Assembly (NCBI GenBank): GCA_013334765.1
Contig: JAAXWW010000002.1
Span: forward strand, 21,453-85,452
From: Candidatus Moraniibacteriota bacterium
GTDB lineage: Bacteria; Patescibacteriota; Minisyncoccia; Moranbacterales; UBA2206
DNA length: 64,000 nt
Direction of reading: 5' to 3'
Shown here: one piece after another, positions 39,518 to 58,586 of the stretch
How the letters are laid out: each line of letters opens with the position of its first letter
How positions within the stretch are numbered: position 1 is the first letter of the stretch
Program-made: the position numbers and the translations under genes
The notes under the pieces: generated by a model
Told to the model about the DNA's origin: nothing
Seen by the model: the letters and a program-made list of their open reading frames with translations, nothing else
Databases searched by the model: none

Positions 39518-40501
39518 GTGAAACTGATCGTAAACATCCCGGCGTATAACGAAGAAAAGGAAATCGCCAAAACCATAACGCGCATAAGAAAAAGCTTCGA
39601 TTTGGATTTCTATTCCAAAGAAGAAGGAAAAGTTATCGACGAAAAACTGATCCAGGTGGTTGACGACGGATCAAGCGACAATACGGCCGAGGAGTGCAGA
39701 AAAGCCGGAGCGGATATAGTCATTTCATACAAACCCAACCGCCGCCTCGCCTATTCCTTCAAGCGCGCAGTCGAAAGCTCTCTTGAGAACGGAGCTGACA
39801 TGATGGTCAATATCGATGCAGATGGTCAATTCGACCCTAATGACATTCCCAAGTTGCTAGTCCCTATCTTGGATGGGAAATGCGATATGGTGATTGCTAA
39901 CCGTTTCGGAGAACACGAAGCTAAAAACATGCCGTTTATCAAGCATTTCCTTAACCGTTTCGCCGCCAACATGATTGGATTCTTCCTTAATTATCCGATT
40001 CAGGATCTCACTTGCGGATTCCGAGCGCATAACCGTGAAACAATGTTGCGCTTCAATTTGACCAATGTCCATTTCACCTATACGCAAGAAACCATTATTG
40101 ATGCGATAGGAAAAAACCTGAAACTTCAATGGGTGCCAGTCAAAGTTTCCTATTTCGCCGACAGGGAATCCAGGATCGTGAAATCGGTCTGGAAATTCGT
40201 CTCCAATTCCGCCAAGATCATCCTGAAAGCAGTCCGTGATGTGCGTCCGATGAAATTCTTCGGCATTCCCGGACTTGTGATGATGCTTGCCGCACTTGCC
40301 GTTTTCATCGTTTTTCTTTTCCATTATTTCGCTACTTTCCAAATCACGACTTATAGGAATTACGTTTTTCTTTCGGTTATCCTTTTCTTCATCGGTCTCC
40401 AATTCTGGGTTTTCGCCCTCATTGCAGACATGATCAAAACCAACCGGAATCTCACAGAGGAACAATTATATTTCATCAGAAAAGAAAAATACAAGAAATA
40501 G
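39518..40501 (+). CDS. polyprenyl-phosphate sugar synthase-type GT2 (DPM1/ArnC/GtrB-like) with C-terminal TM helices
   Basis: NIPAYNEE...VDDGSSDNT...DADGQ motifs and two C-terminal TM helices. Confidence 0.8.
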   Translation: MKLIVNIPAYNEEKEIAKTITRIRKSFDLDFYSKEEGKVIDEKLIQVVDDGSSDNTAEECRKAGADIVISYKPNRRLAYSFKRAVESSLENGADMMVNIDADGQFDPNDIPKLLVPILDGKCDMVIANRFGEHEAKNMPFIKHFLNRFAANMIGFFLNYPIQDLTCGFRAHNRETMLRFNLTNVHFTYTQETIIDAIGKNLKLQWVPVKVSYFADRESRIVKSVWKFVSNSAKIILKAVRDVRPMKFFGIPGLVMMLAALAVFIVFLFHYFATFQITTYRNYVFLSVILFFIGLQFWVFALIADMIKTNRNLTEEQLYFIRKEKYKK

Positions 40502-40676: not shown

Positions 40677-41795
40677 TTGTTTATGAAAATATTATTCGTT
40701 TCACATTCCTATCCTCCGACGCTCGGGGGCGTGGAAATCCAGAATTTCAACCTGGCAAAAGGCCTCGGACAAATAGCCGAGGTCAGAGTCATAGCTAATG
40801 GCAAAGGGAAAAAGCATCTCCCTGTTTTTTTGCCCCTGACATTTTTCAAGATTCTTTTCCTGATGCCGAAATACGATGCCTGCCTCATGGGAAACGGCGT
40901 TCTTGCTCCGCTCGGAGCGGCTGCCAGGATATTCCATCCTAAAAAGAAATTCTTCTGCGTCATCCATGGACTCGACATCACTTTCGCCAGCAAGAAAGGA
41001 CTGCTTTCCAGGATATATTCCGCGGTCAATATCCCCTCCCTCAAATTCGTCGACAAGCTCTTCATGGTTGGAAACGCGACAATCGAAGAAGCGGTCAAGA
41101 TCGGGATCGAACGAAACCATTGCATCTTCATTCCGAACGGAATCGATGCTAAGAAGCTCAGGAAGCCGCATGACCGAACCGAACTTTCAAAACTGTTCGG
41201 GAGCGACATTCAAGGCAAGCAAGTCATCTTGAGATTGGCGCGTTTCGTCAAGCACAAAGGAACAAGCTGGTTCATCGAAAACGTCATGCCGAAACTTCCA
41301 GATTCTGTCGTCATGATAGCAGCCGGGCACCGCGTCGGGAAGAATACAGCCGGAGACAAGGACAACTTTTCGGTCTGCGAAGATATCATCAAAGAAAAAC
41401 ATCTTGAAAATCGAGTGAAGCTCATGCCGTCACTGCCGCAAAAAGACATGGAAACGCTTCTTAATACCGTCGACATCTGTGTTTCCCCGAACATCGAAGT
41501 TCCTGGAACCATGGAGGGATTCGGCATAAACGTCATCGAGGCCGGCGGATGCGAACGGGTGGTTATCGCGTCCGATCTTGAAGGTCTCAAGGACGCGATC
41601 AAAGACGGAAAGAACGGATTCCTGGTCGAACCGGAAAATGCCGAGGCCTGGACGGAAAAAATCAATGAAATCCTCGGGAAAGACGACGCTTTCAGGAAAG
41701 AATTCGGCAAGAAAGCCGCAGCATACGTGGAGGAGAATTTCAATTGGGAAAAGATTTCGAAGAGATACCTGGAAGAAATGACAAAAATGCAATAA
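40677..41795 (+). CDS. family 4 glycosyltransferase
   Basis: GT-B. MEGFGINVIEAGGCERVVIAS. Confidence 0.8.
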   Translation: MFMKILFVSHSYPPTLGGVEIQNFNLAKGLGQIAEVRVIANGKGKKHLPVFLPLTFFKILFLMPKYDACLMGNGVLAPLGAAARIFHPKKKFFCVIHGLDITFASKKGLLSRIYSAVNIPSLKFVDKLFMVGNATIEEAVKIGIERNHCIFIPNGIDAKKLRKPHDRTELSKLFGSDIQGKQVILRLARFVKHKGTSWFIENVMPKLPDSVVMIAAGHRVGKNTAGDKDNFSVCEDIIKEKHLENRVKLMPSLPQKDMETLLNTVDICVSPNIEVPGTMEGFGINVIEAGGCERVVIASDLEGLKDAIKDGKNGFLVEPENAEAWTEKINEILGKDDAFRKEFGKKAAAYVEENFNWEKISKRYLEEMTKMQ

Positions 41796-41810: not shown

Positions 41811-43748
41811 ATGATGCTTTCATTCATCAGCCAACAATTTGCCTTCTATCTGACCCTTCTCCTGCTGTTCTTCCTGCCGGGATATTTTTTGCTGGGCGCG
41901 GTTTTCAAGAAGGACAGCTTCTCCTTTTTTGAGCACGTCATCATCGGATCCGGGCTTAGCATCATCACGACCGATTTCACGATACTCGTTCTCGATCGCG
42001 CGAATATCCCCCTGACAAGATATTCGCTCGCGCTCTCCATACTCGCCATAACTGCCGTCGCATATTTCGTCTCGAAGAAAGGGCAGACCGGAAATTCCAG
42101 CTTCGCCAAACTGAACTTCACTAAAAAGCAAGGCATGCTGATAATAATCCTGATCTGCTCGACTGTCTTCATAAAGGCCTATTATCTCAGAAACGCCGTC
42201 ATGCCGGGAACTACCGACCTGGGGCACCATCTCTATTGGTCGAAAGTCATCGCCGAGACCCACCATATTCCCGAATACACCCAAAGAGACGTCATCAGCC
42301 GGGACGAGACGAACATGATCGGCGCGCCGAAAAAGATCAGCGACTTCATCATCGGCGAACAGCTGTTCTATTCTTCCGTTTCTATCGTTTCCGGAATCGG
42401 TTTCATCTCATATTTCCCGGTGCTCGCGCTTTTCCTGGTGAACACGATGAGCATCCTGGCGCTCTTCATCCTGGCGCTCGAGCTTTTCAGGAACAACCCC
42501 AGGAGAAAAAGCATCGCCATCCTTTCGCTCCTTTTCATCGGTCCGCTTTTCTCGATCGATCCGCCGCAAGCAAAGTTCGTCGCCGGAGGAGTGACCGGGA
42601 ACCTGATCGCCAACTTCCTCGTCCCGCTCACGCTCTATTTCTATATCCGCTTTTTCCATGAAAGAACGAGGGGCTTCCTTTTTTTCGCGTTGCTTTTTTC
42701 CATGGGATTGTTCTATACGCATCACCTGACCGGTTTCATGTTCCTGATCTCATTCGCTTCATTCGTCATCCTTTCTTCCGTCTTCAATTTCAAGGAATTC
42801 TTCGCGCTCATCAAGGATAAATCCAAATTGCTGCTATCCCCACAGATAATCGGATTTTTCGTTTTCGCGCTGATTTTCGTCGCTGCCATATACACCCCGT
42901 CATATCTCACCAATAAAGCTGTCACGACTGTGGTCGGCGCAGTTTCGAAAGCAGGACACGGCGGCCTCACCCTCAATCAGTTCCGGGACACGCTCGGGGA
43001 GACAAGGATCGTCTGGGGAATGATGGGGCTCCTTTTCGCCATCTTCCTTATCAGGAAAAGCGCTGAAAAATTCTCGCTCATCATGGTTTCCGCATGGGCA
43101 GGCGCCATCTTCCTAGTTTCCATGTTCCCGGATATCGTCAAGATCGACCTCCCATCCGGAAGGGCCGCCAACTATGCCAGCTATCCCCTTTCCATCCTTT
43201 CCGCATTCGCGATAGTGACGCTCGCAGCGAAAAGTTTCTGTTCAAAGAATGCTGTCATCCAAAAAACCAGTTCCCGCTTCTTCCTTGGCGCTTTCGTGCT
43301 TCTTGTTTCATTCATAATGATAAACGGCGTGAGCGACAACGTCGGATATCTCATGAAAGACAACTTCTATCCGGACAAGATCCAGGAAACATACGCCGCG
43401 TCGAGCTATCTTTCTTCCAAGATGAGCGGTCAGGATATTCTCGCGGATGATCATATATATATCACTGCCGATTCATTCGTGAAACTCTTCTTCATGCGCG
43501 ACTACAACTTCCCGCTCTATCGGGCGAACCTGGAACGCTACACTAACAACGTCGACAAGGATGAATTCTGCACCCTTTGGATGATATCGGGACCGGAAAC
43601 TCCGGACAGCGAGAAATGCTTCCGGGACCTCGGGGTGAATTTCGTCCTGGTCAACGGAAAGACCGACGCGGCGCAATTCGAGAAGCTCGGCAATTTCCAG
43701 AAGGTATATTCGAACAACGAATTAAATGCTTATTATCGAACAAACTAG
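41811..43748 (+). CDS. large polytopic membrane protein (putative glycosyltransferase-associated, GT-C/YfhO-like)
   Basis: 645 aa, at least 12 TM helices followed by a soluble C-terminal domain. No sharp motif. Confidence 0.45.
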   Translation: MMLSFISQQFAFYLTLLLLFFLPGYFLLGAVFKKDSFSFFEHVIIGSGLSIITTDFTILVLDRANIPLTRYSLALSILAITAVAYFVSKKGQTGNSSFAKLNFTKKQGMLIIILICSTVFIKAYYLRNAVMPGTTDLGHHLYWSKVIAETHHIPEYTQRDVISRDETNMIGAPKKISDFIIGEQLFYSSVSIVSGIGFISYFPVLALFLVNTMSILALFILALELFRNNPRRKSIAILSLLFIGPLFSIDPPQAKFVAGGVTGNLIANFLVPLTLYFYIRFFHERTRGFLFFALLFSMGLFYTHHLTGFMFLISFASFVILSSVFNFKEFFALIKDKSKLLLSPQIIGFFVFALIFVAAIYTPSYLTNKAVTTVVGAVSKAGHGGLTLNQFRDTLGETRIVWGMMGLLFAIFLIRKSAEKFSLIMVSAWAGAIFLVSMFPDIVKIDLPSGRAANYASYPLSILSAFAIVTLAAKSFCSKNAVIQKTSSRFFLGAFVLLVSFIMINGVSDNVGYLMKDNFYPDKIQETYAASSYLSSKMSGQDILADDHIYITADSFVKLFFMRDYNFPLYRANLERYTNNVDKDEFCTLWMISGPETPDSEKCFRDLGVNFVLVNGKTDAAQFEKLGNFQKVYSNNELNAYYRTN

Positions 43749-44123
43749 ATGAGCGAGAAAAAAATAATCATCGTCATTTCCGTTTTCGTCCTTGTTGTCT
43801 TTTCGGCGCTTTCCTGGCGGGAGATGAAATTCCAAACAGGAACATACAGGAACGGCTGGTGGGGCATATATTTCAACGACCCCAAAGGATCAAGCCTTGA
43901 TTTCACTATCAACAACGAAAGCAAGCCGGAAAAATTCTCATGGAAAGTCACCTCTCAGGATGGCAGCACGACATTCCTGCAGGGAACGGAAAACGTTTCT
44001 TCAGGAGAAAAAAGAGAGCTGTCCTTCTCCAGCCAGGATATTCCCCAGAGTCAGAAGATCATCATCAAGGTAACGAATGGGAGCGACGGAACGGAAAAAG
44101 ACATATACAAGACCCTTCCTTAG
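43749..44123 (+). CDS. small secreted/membrane-anchored protein
   Basis: 124 aa with N-terminal TM. Start overlaps the stop of the upstream gene. Confidence 0.35.
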   Translation: MSEKKIIIVISVFVLVVFSALSWREMKFQTGTYRNGWWGIYFNDPKGSSLDFTINNESKPEKFSWKVTSQDGSTTFLQGTENVSSGEKRELSFSSQDIPQSQKIIIKVTNGSDGTEKDIYKTLP

Positions 44124-44202: not shown

Positions 44203-46053
44203 CTATTTCTGAGCCTTATAGACCTCCACATAATTCTTGTCGCGCCCGTTTATGGATATCCTCCAGACCGGTTCGGCGTCGGAATAGTTCACGATATTTT
44301 TCTTGATCTCTTTCCAGGTGTCAGCATACATTACCGATCCGCGCCTGGTCCTCACGACATAGTCTATCTTATCGAGTTCTCCAGTGCTAGCATTCCTTTT
44401 GTAAGCTAGATCCCCTTTTATGCATATTCCCTTGAAGAAAGGGCAGAATCCGTTCTGATCAGCCCAGACAACCATTTTTTCGGCCCCAGGAAGGGCGTTC
44501 AGGTGCTCCGCGGCCTCATAGCCTCCATAGCCCCATGAATCGGCTATGAGCGATTTCTGAGGCAAGAAAGCGTTCGTGTAGTTGAAATAGAAAGGCTTGG
44601 CCGACCAAAGGCTCGCGGCGCCTATGATTAGCAGCCCGGCGGTCAGATATTCTTTTTTTATGCCCGCTATCCTTTTCCAGGAAAACAGCTCCCATATCCC
44701 GATAGCGGAAAGGATGAAAATCAGCGGATAGAGCATTATGGTATAGCGGATATTGACCAGAAGCCCCTGATATATGACGGCTCCATAGAAAGCGGCTATG
44801 AAAACAGCGGTGGACGCGACTATCCATGCCTGTTCCGTCTTCTTCCAGAAAGACTTCGCAAGAACAAAAAACAACAAGAAAAACACTAATGGCAAAACGG
44901 AAAAGATAAGAGGAGCCGCTTCCAGGAAAATCTTTTCATGGAGCTGCTGTTTTCCGAAAATTATCCCCATGTCGGAATCGAACGGAATTTTCCTCAGATC
45001 CGGCATGAGACGGAAACCCGAGGAATGATTCAGGAAAGTTATCAGGAAAACAGCAAGAACCAAGAATATAGGAATGGAAAAAATCAGCCTGCCCGCTTTT
45101 GCAATAAAGCGATATGCCAGATTCATAATCCTTCCCCTATTGAGAAATGCGTCCAGAATGAAAAGCAAGTCAGCAGCAACAGTCGCCCAGAATATTTTCG
45201 ACATGCCGGAAAATCCGATCGTCCCAGCATAGAATATCTTCGGATTGACTATGCCTGCGGGCAGGAATATCGCGAAAACCAGGAAGGCTCCGGCAATCAG
45301 GCAGAGATGCGCCGCAGCGAATCGGCCTATTTTCCTGCCAGTATCGCCTTTCCAATCGGAATATCTGAAAATGGCGATCATCAGGAAGGCGGACAGATAG
45401 AAAGGAATCAAGACAAGGGCGGCATATTTGGTCAAAAGCGCCAAACCCAAGGAAGCAGCCGAAATGGCAACCGATTTCTTTTCTTCCGATTTCAGGTAGT
45501 CGAGAAAGGAAAGGATGGAAATCGCCGAGAAAAGCCACAGCAAGGCATCAGGATTGACGATCTGGGAAACTCCGACGATTATGGGACTCGTCAGGATGAA
45601 GATAGTCGACCAGAGGGCTATCCAGTCGTTTTGGGTTATCCTCCTTATCAGCCAGAAAATGATAATCGCCCCGAATGCATTGAAAATGATTATCGGGACG
45701 CGGAAGAACAGATCAATTGTCCTTATTTTTCCAGGATCATATATGCGGTAATAGTCATGATCAGAAAAAATATTTTCCCTGGAAACATTGAGCAAGGCAT
45801 TCCCTATTCCGGAAATGAGAGCGACGGTCACTCCGGGCTTGTCGTTTATGTATGTGTGTTTCCAATCGCCGGAAAGGATAGCCTTCCAATATTGATCCAC
45901 CCGTCCTGTTCCAGGATCATATATCCAGTAATGCTCATCCACCGTTTCGAATTCGGAAAGATGATAGAACGCGAAAGAAAGATACGTCAGGATAGCCAGC
46001 GAAAGAAAGATGATTACGGTTTTTTTGGATGCGCGGTTTTTCGTCGAAAGCAT
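44203..46053 (-). CDS. GT-C-fold membrane glycosyltransferase (ArnT/PMT-like), paralog 1
   Basis: 616 aa. TM1 then a loop with a DEHYW (DE) motif. KPGVTVALISGIG, SQIVNPDALLW, C-terminal WGYGGYEAAEHLN and GFCPFFKGICI. Confidence 0.55.
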   Translation of the reverse strand: MLSTKNRASKKTVIIFLSLAILTYLSFAFYHLSEFETVDEHYWIYDPGTGRVDQYWKAILSGDWKHTYINDKPGVTVALISGIGNALLNVSRENIFSDHDYYRIYDPGKIRTIDLFFRVPIIIFNAFGAIIIFWLIRRITQNDWIALWSTIFILTSPIIVGVSQIVNPDALLWLFSAISILSFLDYLKSEEKKSVAISAASLGLALLTKYAALVLIPFYLSAFLMIAIFRYSDWKGDTGRKIGRFAAAHLCLIAGAFLVFAIFLPAGIVNPKIFYAGTIGFSGMSKIFWATVAADLLFILDAFLNRGRIMNLAYRFIAKAGRLIFSIPIFLVLAVFLITFLNHSSGFRLMPDLRKIPFDSDMGIIFGKQQLHEKIFLEAAPLIFSVLPLVFFLLFFVLAKSFWKKTEQAWIVASTAVFIAAFYGAVIYQGLLVNIRYTIMLYPLIFILSAIGIWELFSWKRIAGIKKEYLTAGLLIIGAASLWSAKPFYFNYTNAFLPQKSLIADSWGYGGYEAAEHLNALPGAEKMVVWADQNGFCPFFKGICIKGDLAYKRNASTGELDKIDYVVRTRRGSVMYADTWKEIKKNIVNYSDAEPVWRISINGRDKNYVEVYKAQK

Positions 46054-46054
46054 A

Positions 46055-48106
46055 TTATTCCTGATCAGTTCCGGTTATTTCCACAGCTTTATATATCTTG
46101 AGATAATTCTCCCCTCTGTTGTCTATTTTCATCTGCCAGACCGCCTTGCTTGCTCTTGGATGAGGGAAGCTCGGCTTCAACTGGCCTCGCAGGGTATTGT
46201 AATAATAGTCTATGCGGTATTTCTCCGTATCCACCTTCGTCTTGTGGATGCATTTTCCGACAAAGAATTCACAGAATCCGTAGGAATCGGCCCAGACAGT
46301 CAGATTTCGAGCCCCAGGCAGCTTGTTCATATGCTCGGCTGCTTCATAGCCTCCATAGCCCCAAGCGGCTGTAATCATGTATTTCTGAGGCAGGATGCTG
46401 CTGGTATAGTTGAAATAGAACGGCTTGATGTGCCATATGCTCGCGAAACTTATGGCGACGATGCCAACAAAAACCAAAAGGCCGTTGGTTGCGAAAGCCG
46501 GCTTTCTGATTGGAAACTTCTTCATTATGAATATCGAAAAAGCCGCGGCTGCGATCGGGATGACAAACCAGAACCATTCGTGGTATTTCAGGAATTCCTT
46601 AATGCTTCTCTCCTTGATCATTCCGTTCTTGATAGCAAGGGAATAAAGGATGACTCCTCCGATAATGAGGAGGATGGTCAGATATGCTGCTGCCGGAGCT
46701 ATGCGGCGATCATTCGCATTTTGGTTTTCTTTGTTTGAAAAGAATTCGAAGACAGCCAATCCGCAAAGGAACGAAGCGACTGGATAAAGGATCATCGAGT
46801 AGCGGATCTGCAGGAGAAGTCCTTCAGCTATGGATGCCAGAAAGAATATGAGGATGAAGCTCGAGAGCATGAAGGCAGTCGTCTTATGCAATATGTCATT
46901 GAAAAGGCCTTTCGCCCAAAGATAGAACAAGGAAAGGATCGCGAGCGGAGTCAAGGAAAAAGCCAGCGGAACCGCTTCTGCCGCATATCTCTTCAGAAAG
47001 GGAATCTTGGCGAAATCATCTTTTAGCTTCATGTCGAACGGGATGCTTTTGAAGCTGGCAAGAAGCTGCCCTGATATCCAATTCACGAGGACGAAGACGA
47101 AAGTGGCGATCAGGATAGCATAAAGGACCGGCGGCAGGATCTTGCGAAGAGGCTTGAGCTTCTCGAAAATCCCGAACAGCAACCGGCCTTGCAAGAAACG
47201 ATTCTCCAGAATAAGCAGGATATCCAGTGCTATGACCAGCCAGAAAACCGGCACCATGTCGCGCGACCCGATCGTATTTTGGGAAAGGTATTTTATATCA
47301 GTGAATATGGCCGGCATCATGAGCGCGAAGATCAGGAAGCCTCCGAAAGTGATAGCCAGATGGCTCATGAGGCTTCCGAACATCCTTTTCCTGAATTTTT
47401 CCCTGTCCTCGGCGAACACATCGAACTCCATGAAGAAATATGCCAGGATCATGAACAGGATGAACGGAACCAGGATGAACGCCACGTATTTGCTGGCCAT
47501 GCCAAGACCGAAAAAGAGAGTCGTGAGCGCCACCAGCTTCCTGCTCGGCTCTTTGAGATAGCCCATGAAGGTGAGGACTCCGGAAAAAGTAAATATCCAG
47601 AACAGCGAGTCCGGATTGACTATCTGCGACATGCCAATGACTATCGGCGAAAGGAGGATGAAAGTCGTCGCATAGAGCGCGATCCAGGGGTTGTCCGTTA
47701 TTTTCCTGATTATCCAGAAAAAATAGAGCGAGAAAAGGCCGCCGATGAGAAGGATCGGAAAGCGATAAAGAAAATTCAGCCTCTTGGTTTCTGATGGATC
47801 ATACACTCTTGCGGTTCCGTCATCGCTCAGGATCTGGGCATCCGGATTGCGGTCGATAAGGACTGCCGAGATGGATGAGTATGCCAATGTCACGCCCGGC
47901 TTGTCATTTATGCGAGTGCCTTTCCAGTCGCGGTTCGCGACTGCCTCCCAATAGTTCCCGATGCGGCTCTGCCCGGCGCCGAACCAATAATGCTCGTCTG
48001 ACGTGATAAAATCGGTCAGGTGATAGAGACCGAAAGAAAAGAATATTATAAGCGGGATAAGAAGGAGCGCCTTCGGATTGCCAGCGTATTTCTTTATGCT
48101 ACCCAT
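46055..48106 (-). CDS. GT-C-fold membrane glycosyltransferase, paralog 2
   Basis: 683 aa. Same DEHYW, SQIVNPDSLFW, AWGYGGYEAAEHMN and GFCEFFVGKCI motifs. A 1-nt gap separates it from paralog 1. Confidence 0.55.
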   Translation of the reverse strand: MGSIKKYAGNPKALLLIPLIIFFSFGLYHLTDFITSDEHYWFGAGQSRIGNYWEAVANRDWKGTRINDKPGVTLAYSSISAVLIDRNPDAQILSDDGTARVYDPSETKRLNFLYRFPILLIGGLFSLYFFWIIRKITDNPWIALYATTFILLSPIVIGMSQIVNPDSLFWIFTFSGVLTFMGYLKEPSRKLVALTTLFFGLGMASKYVAFILVPFILFMILAYFFMEFDVFAEDREKFRKRMFGSLMSHLAITFGGFLIFALMMPAIFTDIKYLSQNTIGSRDMVPVFWLVIALDILLILENRFLQGRLLFGIFEKLKPLRKILPPVLYAILIATFVFVLVNWISGQLLASFKSIPFDMKLKDDFAKIPFLKRYAAEAVPLAFSLTPLAILSLFYLWAKGLFNDILHKTTAFMLSSFILIFFLASIAEGLLLQIRYSMILYPVASFLCGLAVFEFFSNKENQNANDRRIAPAAAYLTILLIIGGVILYSLAIKNGMIKERSIKEFLKYHEWFWFVIPIAAAAFSIFIMKKFPIRKPAFATNGLLVFVGIVAISFASIWHIKPFYFNYTSSILPQKYMITAAWGYGGYEAAEHMNKLPGARNLTVWADSYGFCEFFVGKCIHKTKVDTEKYRIDYYYNTLRGQLKPSFPHPRASKAVWQMKIDNRGENYLKIYKAVEITGTDQE

Positions 48107-48161
48107 GTGCCGATTATTTTATGATGAATTAATATGCCACGACTGCGAACATTCCAGTCCC

Positions 48162-50090
48162 CTATTCTATGCCTGTGTCGGATTCATCGCCGCCGCTTGA
48201 CTGAGCCTCTTCTGAATCGACAGAAGCCGCTTTCATGATTTCAAAGATGTTATATTTAGAACTGTACACATCCACGCTGTTTCCTTCGCGACCGTCGATC
48301 GCCAGATGCCAGGCAGCATCGGTATCATCCATTTTTCTGATATTTTTCCAGATGCCCGCGAAATCGCTTTCGATCCCGCTTCGGGTAACCACATAATAAT
48401 CGATATTCATCCCGCTTTCTATGAGAGATTTCTTCTTTATGCCCGTGCTCTTTATGCATGTCCCACGAAAGAAAGGACAGAATCCCCAATAATCGGTCCA
48501 GACCACCAGTTTGTCGGAATCAGGCAAAGCATTGAGATATTCGGCTGCTTCATAGCCCCCATAGCCCCAGGCTCCGGTTATGATCCGGCTCTTGGGCAGC
48601 ATATCGTTAGTATAATTGAAATAGAAAGGTTTGATAAGCCAAAGGCTTATGGAGCTTATGGCTATCGCTCCGACATAGATGGCGATCCTCCATCGGCTCC
48701 TGAGTTTTTCCCAATCGAAAAGCTCATAGATGCCGATGGCTGCCAGAATCGAGATGATCGGATAAAGCATCACTCCGTAACGTATGCTTATCAGCAATTT
48801 CTGCTGCAGGACTCCGGCATAGAAAGAAATGATGAACGCCGAAAGGATGAAGACCAGCTTCTTTTCGGAAAAAGGATTGGATATGCCTTTTATCCAGGCG
48901 AAAAGGGCTGAAAAAAAGACTATCGGCGTCAGCGAAAAAATGATCGGATAAAGCTCCAAGAAAATCTTGGTCATGATGCTCTTGCTGAAAAAAATCTTGT
49001 CGCGTCCGGCATTGAATGGCACGTCTTTTATCACAAAAGGCTTGTTATCCAAGGCATAATTCAAAAAGACCGCCAGAAAAGACAAGGCTATAAGGGCCGA
49101 CACAAAGGGAACGAGAGCCATGAAGATCTTTTTCGTTTTGGAAAGGAAAAGCAGCAGGAAGCGGCTTTTCCTGATTCCGGCATCCAGGAAAATAAGCGCG
49201 ACGAAAAGGAACAGTCCCAAAAAAGCCAGCAAAGGACTGGTTTTTTTGAATCCGATAGTGCCTTGATACAGGATGCTCGGGTCAACGAAGACCGCCGGCA
49301 TCAGCAAAGAAAAAACAGCGGCGGCAACGGCAAGGATCAAGAAATATCCGGCGATGAAACGTCTGGCTTTCTTGTGCAGGACGCCATCCTTGTTCCACTG
49401 TTCAAAACCATAATAAAATTCGATCGCAAGCGTCAGGATGAAGAACGGGACCAGAATTATGGCCGCGTATTTGCTGAGAAATGAAAGCGCCAGGAAAAAT
49501 CCTGTCAGGAAAGCATATTTCCACTTGTCATCTTTCAGATATATCAGGAAGCTGAGAATGGAAGCAACTGAAAATTCCCAAAGCATCGAATCCGGATTGA
49601 CGATTTGGGATATGCCGATGATTATCGGAGAAAGCAAGATCAGGGATCCGGCCAAAAGCCCCAGCCAGATCTTCCCAGTCAGCTTCCCTATGAGCCACAT
49701 AAGAACCAGACCAAACAGCCCGTTGAATATGAGAAGCGGCAAACGGAAAGCCAGATTGACCTCCTTCATCCTGTCGGGATCATTGACCGTATAGCCGGAA
49801 CCTTTCAAAGTCATCCGGGTGTCCGGCGTTTTTTCAAAAATAGTCCCGATTCCGGAAACATACGCCAGCGTCACTCCCGGCTTGGTGTTTATGCGGGTAG
49901 CAATCCAATTCTCATTCTTAATCGCGTCCCAGTATTGGAAAATCCTGGAAGTGGAATTGTAATACCAATAATGCTCGTCAGCGGTTGAGAAATCGGTCAG
50001 ATGATAAAGGCCGAAAGAAAAATAAACGGCCAACGGAACAAGCGCGAGGAGCGCCAGCTTTGAAAACCCCAACTTCCAGTGATGCGGCAT
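48162..50090 (-). CDS. GT-C-fold membrane glycosyltransferase, paralog 3
   Basis: 642 aa. DEHYWYY, SQIVNPDSMLW, AWGYGGYEAAEYLN, GFCPFFRGTCI. Acidic Ser-rich C-terminal tail. Confidence 0.55.
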   Translation of the reverse strand: MPHHWKLGFSKLALLALVPLAVYFSFGLYHLTDFSTADEHYWYYNSTSRIFQYWDAIKNENWIATRINTKPGVTLAYVSGIGTIFEKTPDTRMTLKGSGYTVNDPDRMKEVNLAFRLPLLIFNGLFGLVLMWLIGKLTGKIWLGLLAGSLILLSPIIIGISQIVNPDSMLWEFSVASILSFLIYLKDDKWKYAFLTGFFLALSFLSKYAAIILVPFFILTLAIEFYYGFEQWNKDGVLHKKARRFIAGYFLILAVAAAVFSLLMPAVFVDPSILYQGTIGFKKTSPLLAFLGLFLFVALIFLDAGIRKSRFLLLFLSKTKKIFMALVPFVSALIALSFLAVFLNYALDNKPFVIKDVPFNAGRDKIFFSKSIMTKIFLELYPIIFSLTPIVFFSALFAWIKGISNPFSEKKLVFILSAFIISFYAGVLQQKLLISIRYGVMLYPIISILAAIGIYELFDWEKLRSRWRIAIYVGAIAISSISLWLIKPFYFNYTNDMLPKSRIITGAWGYGGYEAAEYLNALPDSDKLVVWTDYWGFCPFFRGTCIKSTGIKKKSLIESGMNIDYYVVTRSGIESDFAGIWKNIRKMDDTDAAWHLAIDGREGNSVDVYSSKYNIFEIMKAASVDSEEAQSSGGDESDTGIE

Positions 50091-50172
50091 GGTGACTTTT
50101 TTAGACGGTTATGGTACCATTCGATTGTAATATTTTTTCAACCTTTTCGCAATAATACCCCGATTTATCCAT

Positions 50173-51306
50173 ATGAAGATATTGTTCTTGAATTATGAAT
50201 TCCCACCGCTCGGCGGAGGGGCAGGAAATGCCACATCATATCTTCTCAGGGAATTCTCAAAAATTCCCGGTTTGGAAATAGACTTGGTGACATCTTCAAC
50301 AGGATCTTTCCGCATCGAGAAAAAATATCCGAACGTGACAATCCATTATCTCGATATCGGGAAGAAAGGCAACCTGCACTATCAATCGATGAAGGATCTC
50401 CTGGTCTATTCCAAAAAAGCCTTGAGCTACAGCAAAGGACTGATAGAAAAAAACCGCTATGACCTTTGCCATGCCTTCTTCGGCATCCCGTGCGGATTCA
50501 TCGCGATGCGGCTCGGCATTCCCTATATCGTGTCCCTTCGCGGAAGCGATGTCCCCTTCTATAACAACCGCTTCTTCCTTCTGGACAAGCTGCTTTTCCA
50601 AAGGATAAGCCGCAAGGTCTGGAAAAATTCAAGAAGGGTTGTCGCATTGAGCCATGACCTGAAAAACCTGGCCATGAAAACCGCATCCGACCAGGATATT
50701 TCCATAATATATAACGGCATCGACACTGACGAGTTCTCTCTCGGAACAGATGTCAGGCAAAATGAAAAGCATACCAACATCCTTTTCGTCGGCAGACTCA
50801 TCGAAAGGAAAGGCCTCGGATATCTCTTGGAAGCATTCCGCAACATTTCAAAAGGCTATCCTGATTCCAGGCTGATCGTTACTGGAGACGGACCGCTTCG
50901 GGAAACCTATCAAAAATATCTGGAAGACAACCGTCTCGAAGACAAGGTCGAGATGCTCGGAATAGTAAGCCATGACAAAATCAAGGAAATATACCAGAAA
51001 TCGCATATCTTCGTTCTCCCCTCTCTCAACGAAGCGCTCGGCAACGTTACTCAGGAAGCGTTGGCGACCGGACTGGCCATCATAACGACCGACACCGGCG
51101 CTGCCGAAATCATCCAGGGAAACGGATTGATCATCGAAAAGAAATCTTCGGCATCGATCGAAGAAGCATTGAAAAAACTGCTAGATGACAAAACGATGAT
51201 CGACGAGATGTCGAAAAAAAGCCGCCAATTGGCTGAGAAGATGGATTGGAAAGCGATAGCCGAAAAATATCTGGAAATATACAAAGAGGCTTCTTCGGAA
51301 AAATAA
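50173..51306 (+). CDS. family 4 glycosyltransferase
   Basis: MKILFLNYEFPPLGGGAGNA... GT-B. Paralog of the 54483-55649 gene. Confidence 0.8.
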   Translation: MKILFLNYEFPPLGGGAGNATSYLLREFSKIPGLEIDLVTSSTGSFRIEKKYPNVTIHYLDIGKKGNLHYQSMKDLLVYSKKALSYSKGLIEKNRYDLCHAFFGIPCGFIAMRLGIPYIVSLRGSDVPFYNNRFFLLDKLLFQRISRKVWKNSRRVVALSHDLKNLAMKTASDQDISIIYNGIDTDEFSLGTDVRQNEKHTNILFVGRLIERKGLGYLLEAFRNISKGYPDSRLIVTGDGPLRETYQKYLEDNRLEDKVEMLGIVSHDKIKEIYQKSHIFVLPSLNEALGNVTQEALATGLAIITTDTGAAEIIQGNGLIIEKKSSASIEEALKKLLDDKTMIDEMSKKSRQLAEKMDWKAIAEKYLEIYKEASSEK

Positions 51307-51370
51307 TAACTTGGCTTGAGACACAAAAAAACCTCGACGTCTTGTCGAGGTTTTTTGTTTTTCAGGATCA

Positions 51371-53416
51371 TCACTCCGCAACGCTTTCTGATTTGTACAG
51401 GCGGATATAGTTCTTATATCTTCCGTCGAGCGTAATCTCCCAGACCGGATTTTCGCTCAGCTTGTATTTGAAAGCCGGCGCTACCGAGCTTTTTGCTGTC
51501 TTATAAAAATAATCTATATGATATTTGCTGGTGTTCACTTTGGCTTTATGGATGCACTTTCCCACGAAAAACTCGCAGAATCCGTATGAATCCGCCCAGA
51601 CGGTCAGATTTTCGGCTCCAGGCAGCTTGTTCATATACTGCGCCGCTTCATAGCCTCCATAGCCCCAAGACCCCACGGTGACGTATTTCTTAGGCAGGAT
51701 GTCGTTCGAGTAGCTGAAATAGTATGGCATGATCAGCCAGACGCTTATGAAAGAAAAGGCGATGATAATGAAGGATATCATTTCCGGCTTGGTCTTCTTG
51801 AGTCCTTCCAGCGAAAGCACGCGATACATGACAAAAGCGATTGCTCCCATTGAAGCGGCCAGGATTAGGGAAAATACGGCTTTATGGGAAGCCATAAATA
51901 TCCCAAATCCGCTCTCGCTCACGATCCCTGCCTGCATGATGGCAGAAAGCGCCCAAAGAAACGCAATCGCCGAAATGACTATTGAGAAAGTCCCGAAAAT
52001 CTTCCTGAATAAGCCGTCCTTCGCCCGATCATAGAAGAATTCCCAAATGGCGATGGAGATGAGGATCATGCACAGCGGATAAAGGATGATGCTGTAGCGG
52101 ATCGTCAGAAGAAGCCCCTGCTCTATGACAGCTATATAGAATATGATGATGAATGAAGAGAACAGGAATGTCAGATATTCATAATTAGATTTCCTGAAAA
52201 TGGACTTTATCCAGACATAGAGAAGGAGCAGCAGCGTGAAAGGCGTCAGCGAAAAGACCAGTGGCACCGATTCCATCAGGAACTTATACAGGAACGGGAG
52301 TTTGGCGAATGACGGATCGCGCTTGGTGTCGAAAGGAATGCTTTCGAGATCCAGCAGCCTGTGGCGCGACAGCCAGTTGATGAGTATGAAAACGAAAGTG
52401 AAGGCAAGAATCAGATAGACCAGTTTCGGCAGCCATTTCTTGAGCGGTTGGAGCTTGGCAAGAACCCAAAGCCAAAACCTGCTTTTCAGGAAATAGGCAT
52501 CCGCCATAATCAGCAGATTGAAAGCCATCAGTGGCCAGAATACCGGTCCCATGCCGGGAAACCCGATCGTCCCTTCATAGAAATATTTCCATTTCACAAA
52601 AACCGCCGGCATCATGAGAGCGAATATGAGGAAGCCGCCCATGACTATCGCAAGATAGCCGAGACTAAGAGACAGCAATCGTTTGGAAAACTCGTCTGTC
52701 TTGTCCTTCCATTCATCATATTCGAAATAATAATAGGTGTGCAGCATCATGAAATAGAATGGAATGAAGATGATGCTCACGTATTTGCTGGCCATGGAGA
52801 GGCCGAAAAAAAGAAGCGTCAGCCAGCAATATTTCTTTTCGAAGAACTTGAGATAGGCCAGGTATGTCAGGATGGAAGCGAAACCGAAAATCCAGAAAAC
52901 AGAATCCGGGTTGACGATCTGGGACATGCCGATGATAACCGGAGAAAGATACATCAGAATGATCGACCAAAGGGCGACCCACGGATTGCCCAGGATCTTC
53001 TTGAGCATCCAGAAAAAGAAGATCGCGAAAAGGCCGGCGACGATGAGGATCGGCGTGCGATAAATGAAGCTTATTTCCTCTATTTTTCCCGGATCGAAAA
53101 TCTTGACTGTTCCGTCGGTGAATTTAAGCTGAGCTTCCGGATTATGTTCAAAGAAAAGCCCGATACCGGAGGTATACGCGAGCGTGATTCCCGGCTTATC
53201 GTTTATGCGGGTCTTCTTCCAATTCTGGTCGGCTATGGCTTGCCAGTATTGATGGATCCTGTCCGATTCTGGATTGAAAAGCCAGAAATGTTCATCGGAA
53301 GAAACGAAGCGCGTGATATTGTGGAATCCGAAAGCGAAAAACATCACTATGACCGAAGCCAGGAACAGCTCGACTTTGATATTCTTGCGCCCTTTCATTT
53401 TTTGGAATAATTTCAT
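51371..53416 (-). CDS. GT-C-fold membrane glycosyltransferase, paralog 4
   Basis: 681 aa. DEHFW, SQIVNPDSVFW, SWGYGGYEAAQYMN, GFCEFFVGKCI. Confidence 0.55.
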   Translation of the reverse strand: MKLFQKMKGRKNIKVELFLASVIVMFFAFGFHNITRFVSSDEHFWLFNPESDRIHQYWQAIADQNWKKTRINDKPGITLAYTSGIGLFFEHNPEAQLKFTDGTVKIFDPGKIEEISFIYRTPILIVAGLFAIFFFWMLKKILGNPWVALWSIILMYLSPVIIGMSQIVNPDSVFWIFGFASILTYLAYLKFFEKKYCWLTLLFFGLSMASKYVSIIFIPFYFMMLHTYYYFEYDEWKDKTDEFSKRLLSLSLGYLAIVMGGFLIFALMMPAVFVKWKYFYEGTIGFPGMGPVFWPLMAFNLLIMADAYFLKSRFWLWVLAKLQPLKKWLPKLVYLILAFTFVFILINWLSRHRLLDLESIPFDTKRDPSFAKLPFLYKFLMESVPLVFSLTPFTLLLLLYVWIKSIFRKSNYEYLTFLFSSFIIIFYIAVIEQGLLLTIRYSIILYPLCMILISIAIWEFFYDRAKDGLFRKIFGTFSIVISAIAFLWALSAIMQAGIVSESGFGIFMASHKAVFSLILAASMGAIAFVMYRVLSLEGLKKTKPEMISFIIIAFSFISVWLIMPYYFSYSNDILPKKYVTVGSWGYGGYEAAQYMNKLPGAENLTVWADSYGFCEFFVGKCIHKAKVNTSKYHIDYFYKTAKSSVAPAFKYKLSENPVWEITLDGRYKNYIRLYKSESVAE

Positions 53417-53493: not shown

Positions 53494-54486
53494 TTATAAT
53501 GTTTCTCCTATTTCTTTTTCTTCTATCTCTTCTATGATTCCCCTGTCCTTCTTCGTTTTGAGATACATCGGAAGCGCCGCGAAGCTGATGAGCATCTGAA
53601 GAAAACGGCTAACAATGGAAACCGCCGTCACCGCCGCGCTATTGACTCCGAATATCCCGAAAAAAGTCACAAAAGCCCATTCTTTGAGCCCGATGTTGTT
53701 GATTGAGATCGGAATGGAAGAAACGATCGTGATTATGAATATCACGGACAAATAATTTATGATCCCGATATGGACTCCGAAGGCCAGCAACAGGACATAG
53801 TTGGCAAGCGCCATGCCGACTATGGAAAACACGCCGCCCATCATGACGCTCTTCACCAGTATGCCGTGATCGCTGCTATACAATCCCAGTTCATGAAAGA
53901 ACTCCGTGATCTTCTCCGGAAGGATTTTTTTGGCTTGGTTCTTTATGAGCGGGATGCTTTTCACTTTTGCCAGGAAAAGGTCGAAAAGGAAGGAAAGGAA
54001 AATAAGCGCATTGGCAACCAAAAGGGCTTTATTTCCCATGACCGTTCTGAAATTGATCAGGCTGAAAACAAGGACCAGGACGGTCGCGCCAACCAGCCCG
54101 GTTATCCTGTCCATCATGACCGAAGACGCCGCCTGAGCGAATTTGTTGCCCTTCTTGCCGATTTCATACGACTTGTATGTGTCGCCGCCAAGGAAGCCGG
54201 GCATGAAGTTGTTGATGAATGTGCCAGTCAGATAATATTTGAAGAAATCGCCGAACGGGCGATGGATGCCTTTGAATCCGGCCAGCATCCTCCATTTGAA
54301 AGCCGAGATGAATATCCCGGAAACGACGATCGCGAGATACAGGGCGATCTGCCAATAATTCACTTGCCCTAAATAAAAAAGGACTTCGTTCCATTTGATC
54401 TTGAAAACCAGCCAGGCGATGAAACCGAGGCTGACCAATATCTTGACCGCGTTCTTGAATATCTTTCCCTTGAATATCTTTTTCAT
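53494..54486 (-). CDS. flippase-like membrane protein (lysylphosphatidylglycerol-synthase TM-region / UPF0104 family)
   Basis: 330 aa, about 8 TM helices. N-terminal ILVSLGFIAWLVFKI...LAGFKG pattern of this family. Overlaps the GT4 gene by 4 nt. Confidence 0.6.
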   Translation of the reverse strand: MKKIFKGKIFKNAVKILVSLGFIAWLVFKIKWNEVLFYLGQVNYWQIALYLAIVVSGIFISAFKWRMLAGFKGIHRPFGDFFKYYLTGTFINNFMPGFLGGDTYKSYEIGKKGNKFAQAASSVMMDRITGLVGATVLVLVFSLINFRTVMGNKALLVANALIFLSFLFDLFLAKVKSIPLIKNQAKKILPEKITEFFHELGLYSSDHGILVKSVMMGGVFSIVGMALANYVLLLAFGVHIGIINYLSVIFIITIVSSIPISINNIGLKEWAFVTFFGIFGVNSAAVTAVSIVSRFLQMLISFAALPMYLKTKKDRGIIEEIEEKEIGETL

Positions 54487-55649
54487 TTTTGTCTTGTTAT
54501 CTTTTCGTATTCGCCGGCATATTTTTCGGCGACTGTCTGCCAGCTCATTTCCTTGGACATCTCCAGGCTCTTTCGTGACATCGATTCCCGGAGATTATTG
54601 TCGTCCATTATGAGCTTGATTTTCTCGGCGATGTCATGGCTGTTTTCGAATCCGACGATGAATCCGTTTTCTCCTGGTCTGACCAGTTCGCTCGCTCCGC
54701 CGGTATTGGTCGTCACGATCGGAAGCCCGGTCGCCAATGCCTCAAGCATGGCGTTGCTCATGCCTTCGTTAAGTGAAGGCAGAACGAAAAGGTCCGCTTC
54801 CTGATATCGCGGCACGATATCTTCATGCGAAAAACGCCCCAAAAATTCGATATTCTTTTCCAGCTTCAATTCGCGGACCAGGTTCTTGAGGTTTTCGCTT
54901 TCGTTGCCCTCCCCCATTATCCTGAGCCGGATATGCGGATGATCCGGAACAAGTTCAGAAACGGCTTCGACCAGATATTTGAGTCCTTTTCTTGCGGTTA
55001 TCCTCGATCCTCCCGGAGTGATGACGAATTCCTGGGGGTTCTTTCTTTTTTCATCAGGTTTGAATTGTTCGATATTGACCCCGTTATGAATCACGCCGAT
55101 CTCCTGATCAGGGCTTGACTCGAGAGCCAGTTCCCGAAGCCCCATGGAATTGGAGATGACGCTTCCGGCTGATTTCCAAATCTTCACGATCAGGGGTTTC
55201 AAAATATCATATATGAACATGAAGCGGTCGCTATAGCCGGGAACATCCGAGCCTCTGAGGCTTATGATATAGGGTATGCCGAATTTCTTTTTGAACCTAT
55301 AGGAGAGATATCCGCAAGGGACGGTGAAAAAAGAATGCGTGGCGTCGTATCCGTTGTCGCCGGCTTCCAGAATGAGTTTCTTTGAAAACCAATAGGCTTC
55401 CCAGGTATAGACCAGCAGGTCCTTTTGGGATTGGAAATGGAGATTCCTGCTGTTTTTCCCGATAGGAAGGCGGTGGACGCGGACATTCTCCCCCATCTTC
55501 TCGAGGTGATATTCGCTATCGACAGATGAAGTCACCAGGTCTATTTCCAAATCGGGATTCTTTGCGAATTCGCGCAGGATGCAAAAAGCCGCATTGGCTG
55601 CGCCCCCTCCCAATGGCGGATATTCGTAGTTGAAAAAAAGTATTTTCAT
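54483..55649 (-). CDS. family 4 glycosyltransferase
   Basis: MKILFFNYEYPPLGGGAANA... GT-B. Confidence 0.8.
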   Translation of the reverse strand: MKILFFNYEYPPLGGGAANAAFCILREFAKNPDLEIDLVTSSVDSEYHLEKMGENVRVHRLPIGKNSRNLHFQSQKDLLVYTWEAYWFSKKLILEAGDNGYDATHSFFTVPCGYLSYRFKKKFGIPYIISLRGSDVPGYSDRFMFIYDILKPLIVKIWKSAGSVISNSMGLRELALESSPDQEIGVIHNGVNIEQFKPDEKRKNPQEFVITPGGSRITARKGLKYLVEAVSELVPDHPHIRLRIMGEGNESENLKNLVRELKLEKNIEFLGRFSHEDIVPRYQEADLFVLPSLNEGMSNAMLEALATGLPIVTTNTGGASELVRPGENGFIVGFENSHDIAEKIKLIMDDNNLRESMSRKSLEMSKEMSWQTVAEKYAGEYEKITRQK

Positions 55650-56259: not shown

Positions 56260-56326
56260 ATTTTTTATGGATTATTGAAAAATATTTTTTGCTTCTTTAT
56301 GCCTATTCTAACATAAATTGGAAGAT

Positions 56327-56361
56327 AAAAAAACGGGCACACGCAGGTTCACGTGTGCCCG
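56327..56361 (-). terminator. rho-independent terminator
   Basis: Perfect 10-bp stem cgggcacacg / cgtgtgcccg. U7 on the minus strand. Confidence 0.55.
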
Positions 56362-56390
56362 TTGGGGGCGGAGCGACTGACCAATGTCAG

Positions 56391-56600
56391 TCAAAGTCGC
56401 TGAGCAACTTCCCTTCCTTCAATGAAAACTTTTGCATTGGCAAGGTTGATGTCGTCAATGCCGAGCTTTTCAAACAAAGTCTGCCCAAGACACCTCGCGA
56501 TATCTTCCTTGGCACACACATTGTCAGAAACAAGGAAGTGGTGCTTTCCTCCCTTGAAAAGATAAAACCCCACAACCATGCCATTCGCTTTTTCAGCCAT
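56391..56600 (-). CDS. hypothetical small protein (69 aa)
   Basis: AAGGAG RBS 9 nt upstream. Own terminator. A second hairpin (gactgac/gtcagtc) overlaps the stop codon. Confidence 0.4.
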   Translation of the reverse strand: MAEKANGMVVGFYLFKGGKHHFLVSDNVCAKEDIARCLGQTLFEKLGIDDINLANAKVFIEGREVAQRL

Positions 56601-56699
56601 TTCTTGACACTCCTTAGCGCCAGTTTTTTCTGGTTAAGAACAAAAGATAACAATAAGACCTTACAACAATATCCACACAAAGTCAATAGCGTGAAAACA

Positions 56700-56737
56700 T
56701 AAAAAATCCCCGATACGCAAACGTGTGCGTGTCGGGG
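56700..56737 (-). terminator. rho-independent terminator
   Basis: ccccga-tacgca...tgcgtg-tcgggg extended hairpin. U6 on the minus strand. Confidence 0.55.
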
Positions 56738-56756
56738 AATAAGCGAGGAAAAGATT

Positions 56757-57089
56757 CTAAGCGGCCTTTCTCCTTGAAAGAACAAACTTATCAGCGATGG
56801 CACCTGTCGTCATTCCTTTCAGTGCTGCCACGCTGATTTCCGGAATTGCATAAACGGCACCCATGGTATGAAGCTCAATGCCGCTGATAACGCCAATCGC
56901 TGGCTTCCTTTTGAAAAAATTCGCAAGTTCCCGAGCAGCATCAAAAAGGGCCGGCTTGAGATTGATATGTCCCTTCAGCTCGATTCTTTTAACGAGCGGA
57001 ACGATACTGCCTTTCGCGTCATACGAATTAGGGCTCAAGAAAGACAATGTGCAACACGTAGCATTCTGCTGTGAAGTTTCCTTTTTCAT
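56757..57089 (-). CDS. hypothetical protein (110 aa)
   Basis: ORF with its own terminator. No family recognised. Confidence 0.35.
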   Translation of the reverse strand: MKKETSQQNATCCTLSFLSPNSYDAKGSIVPLVKRIELKGHINLKPALFDAARELANFFKRKPAIGVISGIELHTMGAVYAIPEISVAALKGMTTGAIADKFVLSRRKAA

Positions 57090-57269
57090 GACGCCATGTC
57101 CTTTCTTCTGATTGTTTCAGAAAATGTTTCAGGCTTTCCCCTGCCAAAAGTACTATATACGCACGAATAATGAAGAAACTATACCAAAACAAGCTTCGGA
57201 AGTCAAATAGGGAAACAAAAACCGCCCTCAAAGAATGAGAGCAGTTTATTGAAAGAATATTCTTGAAAT

Positions 57270-58586
57270 CTATTCCGCGTCCACTCGTCCGACAGAATAA
57301 TATTTGAAACCTTCTTTCTTCATCGCTTTCACGGTATAGACATTTCGGAGATCAACAACGACCGGGGCATTGAGAAGCGATTTGACGCGTTCCAAATCAA
57401 GCGCGCGGTATTCGTTCCATTCGGTCATGAAAACGAGCACATCCGCTCCCTCGCAAGCCTTGTACGGATCATCGACATATTCCAGATCAGGCATGATCTT
57501 CTTGGCTTCTTCCATAGCTTCAGGATCATGAGCTTTGATCCTGGCTCCCTTTTCGGAAAGAGCCGAAAGGATGGTGATCGCCGGAGCATCGCGCATATCA
57601 TCGGTTTCTGGCTTAAAAGCAAGTCCGAGAACAGCAACAGTTTTTCCTGATTCGCTTCCTCCCAACGCCTTCTTGATTTTCCTGATCATCTTGGCTTTCT
57701 GAGCTGAATTGACTTCGACAACCGTTTCAACAATGCGAAGAGGCGCTCCATATTCCTGTCCAGTCCTCATGCAAGCCTTCGTGTCCTTCGGAAAGCATGA
57801 TCCGCCATATCCAGGACCAGCCTGTAGGAATTTCATTCCGATACGGCTGTCCAGTCCCATGCCTTTCGAGACATCATCGATATTGGCTCCGATCGCCTCG
57901 CAAAGATTAGCGATTTCATTGATGAAGCTGATCTTGGTCGCCAAAAATGCATTAGCGGCATATTTTGTGAGCTCAGCTGACATGAGATCAGTGATAACAA
58001 TCGGGGTCTTCGAAAGATAAAGAGGTTCATATATTTTCTTCATGGTCGCCTCAGCCTTTTCAGAAGCTACTCCGATGACCACGCGATCAGGTTTCATGAA
58101 GTCGCTGATCGCGGCACCTTCCCTGAGAAATTCAGGATTGGACGCCACATCGAAATCAGCTTCCGGATTGGTTTCTTTGATGATTCTCGCCACCTGATTG
58201 GCGGTTCCAACTGGAACGGTGCTTTTGTCCACGATGACGGTATAGCCTTTGAGATGCTCGGCGATATTTTTCGCCGCTTCGAATACATAGGTGAGATCCG
58301 CATAACCGTCTCCTCGCCTGGAACTCGGGGTTCCGACAGCGATGAAAACAGCGTCCGCTTCTGAAATAGCAGGATCATAGGAAGTGGTGAAATTCAATCT
58401 TCCAGCAGATGTGTTCTTCTTGACCAATTCATCCAGTCCTGGCTCATAGATAGGAATTTTACCCTCTTTAAGGCTTGTTATTTTCTTTTCATCGATATCG
58501 ATGCAAGTGACAGTGTGTCCGAAATCAGCGAAACATGCTCCGCTCACCAATCCCACATATCCAGTTCCAATGACTGCTATTTTCAT
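57270..58586 (-). CDS. ugd: UDP-glucose 6-dehydrogenase
   Basis: MKIAVIGTGYVGLVSGACFA, catalytic GGSCFPKD, 438 aa. Confidence 0.9.
   Translation of the reverse strand: MKIAVIGTGYVGLVSGACFADFGHTVTCIDIDEKKITSLKEGKIPIYEPGLDELVKKNTSAGRLNFTTSYDPAISEADAVFIAVGTPSSRRGDGYADLTYVFEAAKNIAEHLKGYTVIVDKSTVPVGTANQVARIIKETNPEADFDVASNPEFLREGAAISDFMKPDRVVIGVASEKAEATMKKIYEPLYLSKTPIVITDLMSAELTKYAANAFLATKISFINEIANLCEAIGANIDDVSKGMGLDSRIGMKFLQAGPGYGGSCFPKDTKACMRTGQEYGAPLRIVETVVEVNSAQKAKMIRKIKKALGGSESGKTVAVLGLAFKPETDDMRDAPAITILSALSEKGARIKAHDPEAMEEAKKIMPDLEYVDDPYKACEGADVLVFMTEWNEYRALDLERVKSLLNAPVVVDLRNVYTVKAMKKEGFKYYSVGRVDAE

Follow-up and report, generated by a model that had tools for sequence, protein, structure and literature searches.

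Four anciently diverged PMT_2-type GT-C glycosyltransferases in a cell-envelope glycan locus of a Moraniibacteriota bacterium

What do four related membrane glycosyltransferases, encoded at a single site in the genome of a Candidatus Moraniibacteriota bacterium, add sugars to, and did they arise there by recent duplication? The stretch considered here ("the window") comprises 64,000 nucleotides of contig JAAXWW010000002.1 (assembly GCA_013334765.1), and all coordinates refer to it. A first-pass annotation had described four paralogous minus-strand membrane glycosyltransferase genes of 616–683 aa, three of them in tandem; the coordinates proved exact, and the four products (A–D) match the Pfam families PMT_2 and PMT and share the GT-C fold. 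They are anciently diverged members of what appears to be a small PMT_2-type subfamily confined to Moraniibacteriota and close relatives, and we consider it rather probable that they act in a multi-component glycosylation system with a wall glycopolymer as acceptor.

44203–46053, minus strand: paralog A, short-form PMT_2-type GT-C glycosyltransferase, 616 aa (open reading frame [ORF]; Pfam PMT_2 4e-11, PMT 7e-11)
46055–48106, minus strand: paralog B, long-form GT-C, 683 aa (ORF, Pfam, motifs)
48162–50090, minus strand: paralog C, short-form GT-C, 642 aa, at the head of the C-B-A unit
51326–51356, both directions: terminator-like hairpin, 14-bp stem between A and T runs, between the GT4 gene at 50173 and D
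51371–53416, minus strand: paralog D, long-form GT-C, 681 aa, at the end of the unit GT4/flippase-like/D (ORF, Pfam, motifs)

Results

Four Paralogs with a Common Fold

A, B, and C lie head to tail on the minus strand, and a GT4 gene of opposite orientation (50173–51306) stands between C and D. A single T stands between the TAA stop of B and the ATG of A, the one-nucleotide spacing that had been described; 55 nt lie between B and C. From the gene orientations, the spacing, and the hairpin at 51326–51356, the likely transcription units are the GT4 gene at 54483 with the flippase-like gene and D, the GT4 gene at 50173 alone, and C-B-A.

The four proteins are paralogs, with 38–49% identity in whole-length alignments and BLASTP scores of 277–624 bits against one another (E values 1e-88 to 0), compared with at most 23 bits in 50 shuffles. 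Every motif block that the first-pass annotation had picked out (DEH[YF]W, KPG[VI]T, SQIVNPD, WGYGGYE, and GFCxFFxGxCI) is present in A, B, C, and D alike. Predicted extramembrane segments are 45–56% identical between paralogs versus 34–47% for the membrane core, well above the 20% outside the transmembrane (TM) segments below which the kinship would have been in doubt. The idea that the intervening loops and tails differ holds in part: variable regions exist (the EL1 hairpin at C 86–110, residues 221–250, residues 291–375 with two helices and the following loop, two C-terminal-domain loops, and the tails), but most of the conserved blocks themselves fall within the C-terminal domain or in extracytoplasmic loops. 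The acidic, Ser-rich C-terminal tail, correctly ascribed to one paralog, belongs to C alone of the four and is rare, occurring in 5–13% of family members.

Membership in PMT_2 (PF13231) is supported by 43.8, 35.7, 43.9, and 28.4 bits for A, B, C, and D (gathering cut-off 26.1), and PMT (PF02366) is above its cut-off in all four, with an additional match to TgpA_N in D that falls below its own; the Pfam match spans only about 145 residues of these proteins. C is 100% identical to an NCBI protein from a Candidatus Moranbacteria bacterium named "phospholipid carrier-dependent glycosyltransferase," and relatives carry the name "glycosyltransferase family 39 protein." The multi-helix membrane core superposes on solved GT-C enzymes, with comparison figures, reported without a unit, of 22.1 for Pmt4, 21.9 for ALG12, 21.6 for AglB and for ArnT, 20.8 for Pmt2, and 20.1 for STT3B. 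Foldseek ranks oligosaccharyltransferase (OST) subunits at the top with modest TM-scores of 0.38–0.47. A sequence search of the PDB with the paralog family gave no match even at an E value of 10, and by this comparison the family is remote from all solved structures.

That A–D, like ArnT, act on a membrane lipid instead of on a polymer or protein is in our view very improbable. Membership in the ArnT family (GT83) is contradicted by the equivalog model NF009784, which A alone matches with 17.2 bits against a cut-off of 567, and by hhalign, which gives the family profile a probability of 0.2% against Escherichia coli ArnT. Moreover, no ArnA/B/D-type genes of the remaining Arn pathway were found among the ORFs scanned, and lipid A synthesis is not known from Patescibacteria.

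Across 121 family members, D38 and E39 of the DEHxW block (C numbering) are invariant. They lie about 10 residues past helix 5–28 of C, the position at which PMT-, ArnT-, and OST-type GT-C enzymes carry their catalytic acidic residue. The proposal that this dipeptide after TM1 is a catalytic element thus gains from the wider alignment, and the pair would act on the outer side of the membrane in the predicted topology. Other invariant or nearly invariant positions in the same set are KPG at 70–72, N165 and D167 of SQIVNPD, K207-Y208, and R437-Y438, followed toward the C terminus by P488, Y490, Y493, the WGYGGYE residues W508, G509, G511, G512, and E514, and C538 and C545. Because these two cysteines are nearly the only ones in A–D, a structural disulfide outside the cell, within an alpha/beta C-terminal domain of ~125 residues, would fit, in keeping with the structural role first suggested for this motif. 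For the C-terminal segments of A–D, Pfam gives nothing significant even at E ≤ 10. B and D, the long forms, exceed the short forms (A and C) by ~75 residues, which correspond to two extra hydrophobic helices before the last TM segment (B 468–497 and 509–533; D 468–501 and 503–536). Since the number of added helices is even, the C-terminal domain is predicted to lie on the same side of the membrane in both forms.

Old Duplications and a Recurrent Long-Short Pair

In a neighbor-joining tree with 119 homologs, each paralog falls in a separate clade beside proteins of other genomes; the long-form clade holds both B and D, with D less close to B than to sequences from other genomes. At third codon positions, identity between the paralogs is 0.36–0.42, which is saturated. 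These closer foreign relatives and saturated positions indicate that the duplications are ancient. No conversion tracts were found between the paralogs (best 30-codon window 0.73–0.88), and on all of these grounds we reject recent tandem duplication and gene conversion. The earlier suggestion of repeated duplication with divergence therefore stands as to duplication and divergence, but not as a recent local tandem amplification; divergence of acceptor specificity among the paralogs is plausible.

A motif scan with one genome per GTDB species yielded 146 confirmed stretches, from which 79 loci were kept. Most are titled Moraniibacteriota, Parcubacteria, or Patescibacteria. About one-third bear the title "uncultured Bdellovibrionales" (L011, L030, L032, L035–L038, and others), probably a wrong taxonomic label on records of metagenome-assembled genomes. 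In an exhaustive profile search of 1.84 billion representatives, only 441 clusters were recovered at E ≤ 1e-30. The family thus appears to be small and lineage-restricted.

Pairs or triplets are the rule at these loci (53 of 79): two members occur in 43, three in 10, and one in 26. Adjacent same-strand pairs lie no more than 60 nt apart in 47 of 62 cases, and the unit that recurs has a long form with a short form immediately downstream of it, most clearly a D-like gene followed by a C-like gene; B followed by A in the window repeats the pattern. The pairing is not an absolute rule, as a lone D-like gene in L047 demonstrates. At least 7 of 70 genomes have four or five members, most often spread over two loci with a pair at each, whereas the window has all of its members at one site. 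Relatives of D with 53–56% identity are found in many Moraniibacteriota loci, where a C-like short form normally follows. In several loci (L005, L006, L007, L031, L046, and L054) a gap of ~750 nt separates the D-like gene from the C-like gene where the two would otherwise abut, and this junction, occupied in the window by the opposite-strand GT4 gene, seems to be a variable insertion point. Further architectures include forms of ~750 aa with an N-terminal extension of ~145 residues, usually upstream of a short form, and forms of 930–1,140 aa with C-terminal extensions (loci L027, L035, L045, L056, L061, and others; proteins P0316–P0366, P0270, and P0297).

The nearest relative of A (P0034, 80% identity) is encoded on a JGI metagenome contig (L080) with the gene order opposite-strand GT4, C, B, A, small ORF, DUF1616, GT4, GT2, UGDH, GT4, Wzy_C, GT4. 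Identity to the window is 80% for A, 83% for B, and 85% for C, and 83–96% for the other syntenic genes, except for Wzy_C at 76%. The C-B-A array is thus kept in a close relative; across the phylum it is the long-short pair, not the four-gene array, that recurs.

A Proposed Locus for Multi-Component Glycosylation

By Pfam and NCBIfam annotation, the window from 30 to 64 kb is a cell-envelope glycan locus, and homologs of its neighboring genes accompany the family in 24–43 of the 79 related loci. The flanking glycopolymer genes on the minus strand (30704–37431, the first five below) have the same order in L080.

30704–31516, minus strand: GT2
31527–32771, minus strand: LCP ligase
32904–34088, minus strand: GT4
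34063–35676, minus strand: Wzy_C protein
36265–37431, minus strand: GT4
37539–38822, plus strand: NDP-sugar dehydrogenase, UDP-ManNAc dehydrogenase-like (Pfam, NCBIfam)
39518–40501, plus strand: second GT2 polyprenyl-phosphate sugar synthase, AglJ/PpgS/ArnC-like (Pfam GT2; best NCBIfam match AglJ, 2e-32)
40677–41795, plus strand: GT4 glycosyltransferase, syntenic in L080 and other loci
41811–43748, plus strand: DUF1616/DUF6541 membrane protein, 645 aa, OST-like GT-C fold in its model
50173–51306, plus strand: GT4 glycosyltransferase (Glycos_transf_1 4e-34; homologs in 40 of 79 loci; L080 copy 87% identical)
53494–54486, minus strand: flippase-like membrane protein, 330 aa, directly upstream of D (LPG_synthase_TM 2e-32; NCBIfam TIGR00374; homologs in 39 of 79 loci)
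54483–55649, minus strand: GT4 glycosyltransferase, its 3' end overlapping the flippase-like start by 4 nt (homologs in 43 of 79 loci)
Between the preceding and following genes: rubrerythrin gene
57270–58586, minus strand: UDP-glucose 6-dehydrogenase, TuaD/AglM-like (Pfam; NCBIfam TuaD model, 584 bits)
58607–59545, minus strand: GT2 polyprenyl-phosphate sugar synthase, ArnC/GtrB/PgfS type, two C-terminal TM helices

Two of these genes encode membrane-linked GT-A synthases. The product of the GT2 gene at 58607 matches the NCBIfam models ArnC (2.6e-45) and PgfS (2e-44) over its full length and shares 30% identity with E. coli ArnC from end to end, including the C-terminal TM helices (E value 2e-47); the GT2 gene at 39518 has a copy in L080 that is 95% identical. 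Such GT2 genes occur within 10 kb of the family in 29–32 of the 79 loci.

In multi-component (formerly "three-component") transmembrane glycosylation, a membrane GT-A enzyme makes C55-P-sugar, a flippase moves it across the membrane, and a GT-C enzyme transfers the sugar outside; one organism may have several GT-A/GT-C pairs that share a flippase (PMC8035078). The layout of the locus, with GT-A synthase, candidate flippase, and GT-C, is the reason why we favor this mechanism. The NDP-sugar dehydrogenases and other enzymes would supply nucleotide sugars, possibly hexuronic acids, and the two membrane-anchored GT2 synthases would load sugar on polyprenyl phosphate at the inner face. The lipid-linked sugar would then be flipped, the candidate flippase being the 330-aa protein encoded upstream of D, and the GT-C paralogs would use the Asp-Glu pair after TM1 and the outer loops (SQIVNPD, SKY, IRY, and WGYGGYE) to transfer it to an acceptor outside. 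The favored acceptor is a secondary cell-wall glycopolymer that neighboring genes (GT4, Wzy_C, and LCP) in this locus may produce, and different paralogs may serve different donor or acceptor positions.

Many characterized GT-C enzymes, such as GacL, GtlB, CsdD/CsdF, GtsC, and YkcB, have the PMT_2 domain (PMC8035078), and A–D have it in common with these Gram-positive enzymes and GttB. The partners are also alike, a membrane-anchored GT2 synthase and, here as a candidate, a flippase, as would be the action outside the membrane. In contrast to the Gram-positive GT-Cs, A–D have their own conserved C-terminal domain (WGYGGYE, CxxxxxxC) that Pfam does not match, belong to a family with long and short forms, usually adjacent and seemingly restricted to Moraniibacteriota and close relatives, and stand beside a candidate flippase of LPG_synthase_TM type instead of GtrA or Wzx. 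A second likeness is to mycobacterial EmbC-EmbA-EmbB, which are likewise encoded head to tail, are paralogous GT-Cs, and build a wall polymer from polyprenyl-phosphate sugar. EmbA and EmbB form a heterodimer (title of PDB entry 7bvf). Our literature search for GT39, GT-C, or O-mannosyltransferase in Patescibacteria or the candidate phyla radiation (CPR) returned nothing.

Protein as a Possible Alternative Acceptor

Actinobacterial and eukaryotic PMTs and the streptococcal GtrB/PgtC2 and PgfS/PgfM1 systems provide models for a different role, in which A–D would be protein O-glycosyltransferases that take single sugars from polyprenyl-phosphate donors and attach them to surface proteins in segments rich in Ser and Thr. 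The GT2 synthase of PgfS type and the Pfam PMT matches would suit such enzymes. The MIR and PMT_4TMC domains of GT39 PMTs (yeast Pmt1-Pmt2 and Pmt4, actinobacterial Pmt), on the other hand, are not detected in A–D, for which only PMT and PMT_2, besides the subthreshold TgpA_N in D, appear at E ≤ 0.1; the same cut-off yields no Pfam YfhO match in A–D (the family of YfhO, PgtC2, and PgfM1/M2). We regard this role as unlikely.

Another route to protein runs through the DUF1616/DUF6541 neighbor, which the first-pass annotation had proposed to align with A–D, as it had the membrane protein at 61578–63683. Neither is a member of the family, with hhalign probabilities of 1.5% and 1.8%, respectively. 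In its model the DUF1616 protein has an OST-like fold whose C-terminal domain matches the AglB domain taken in isolation, and its gene is found in synteny with the array in L080 and in 14 of the 79 loci. In an archaeal Agl-like pathway, this protein would move a lipid-linked oligosaccharide to protein, and A–D would then draw on polyprenyl-phosphate donors to add finishing sugars to this protein-bound glycan. The best match of the GT2 protein at 39518 is AglJ, the dehydrogenase matches the AglM model too, and A and C weakly match Agl23, although all of these Agl-type matches are below curated thresholds. A precedent for a finishing transferase is Haloferax volcanii AglS, described as a mannosyltransferase that uses dolichol phosphate-mannose; it completes an Asn-linked glycan with its final sugar outside the cell, and its cluster also contains AglJ-, AglM-, and AglB-type genes (PMC3871713). 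AglS is archaeal, and we liken A–D to it by description. The DUF1616 protein lacks the WWDYG motif and any OST match at the sequence level, and A–D themselves show neither the C-terminal WWDYG motif nor STT3 similarity expected of an OST (STT3/AglB/PglB). In our literature search, DUF1616 turned up in one paper, only as an archaeal glycoprotein. Such a pathway seems to us quite improbable. Pmt1-Pmt2 and EmbA-EmbB form heteromers, and a fuller version, in which the long and short forms would be obligate heteromers that finish the glycan of an Agl-like protein glycosylation pathway together with the OST-like protein, is likewise quite improbable.

The wall-glycopolymer reading that we favor has its own difficulties. 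The gene context suits protein glycosylation equally well, and the OST-like model of the DUF1616 neighbor points toward protein as the target. The three locus gaps examined gave no recognizable flippase of GtrA or Wzx type, nor any multi-TM ORF of GtrA size; the domain of the flippase-like protein is familiar from lipid flipping of the MprF type, not from sugar carriers. Finally, four GT-C genes face two synthases, and the source organism is uncultured. These points weigh against the wall-glycopolymer reading, which we nevertheless prefer on the layout of the locus.

Other Features of the Window

Two small single-TM ORFs flank the GT2-GT4-DUF1616 unit (39286–39516, plus strand, 76 aa; 43749–44123, plus strand, 124 aa), and L080 has ORFs of 76 and 123 aa at the same positions. 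By analogy with GacJ and GacI, they might be accessory subunits. A 565-aa protein (59915–61612, minus strand) combines a hydrophobic segment at the N terminus with a C-terminal low-complexity stretch rich in Ser and Asp, DQSDTDVSSEDDSSQEPDSSDQSAGDSQADDTDNSVSD; Pfam and NCBIfam give no match, just 1 of the 79 related loci encodes a homolog, and the protein could be a glycosylation target. The multi-TM protein at 61578–63884 (minus strand, 701–768 aa depending on the start codon) has a weak, subthreshold match to the MmpA trehalose-lipid delivery family and no homolog in the 79 loci. Between the rubrerythrin and UDP-glucose dehydrogenase genes, about 1 kb (56260–57270) contains no convincing ORF and no Rfam match, and a strong terminator-like hairpin lies at 56363–56332. 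Low G+C marks two segments of the window (0.388 at 14001–16000 and 0.366 at 22001–24000; average about 0.46).

Discussion

The enzyme class to which A–D belong is well known, and the genes were already annotated as such, so that the locus adds detail rather than a new principle. The new details are the lineage-specific C-terminal domain with motifs of its own, the pairing of long and short forms, and the OST-like neighbor; the kind of system is unchanged. The prevailing view is that CPR bacteria live attached to other cells, and for this reason their surface chemistry probably shapes host recognition; to our knowledge, almost nothing is known of CPR envelope glycans. Moraniibacteriota hold several predicted outer-face GT-Cs per genome, usually as long-short pairs, beside lipid-sugar synthases and an OST-like protein. 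If the Agl-like pathway were true, CPR bacteria would have an unrecognized oligosaccharyltransferase family that glycosylates surface proteins. The locus supplies concrete enzymes and conserved motifs with which such ideas about the CPR surface may be tested.

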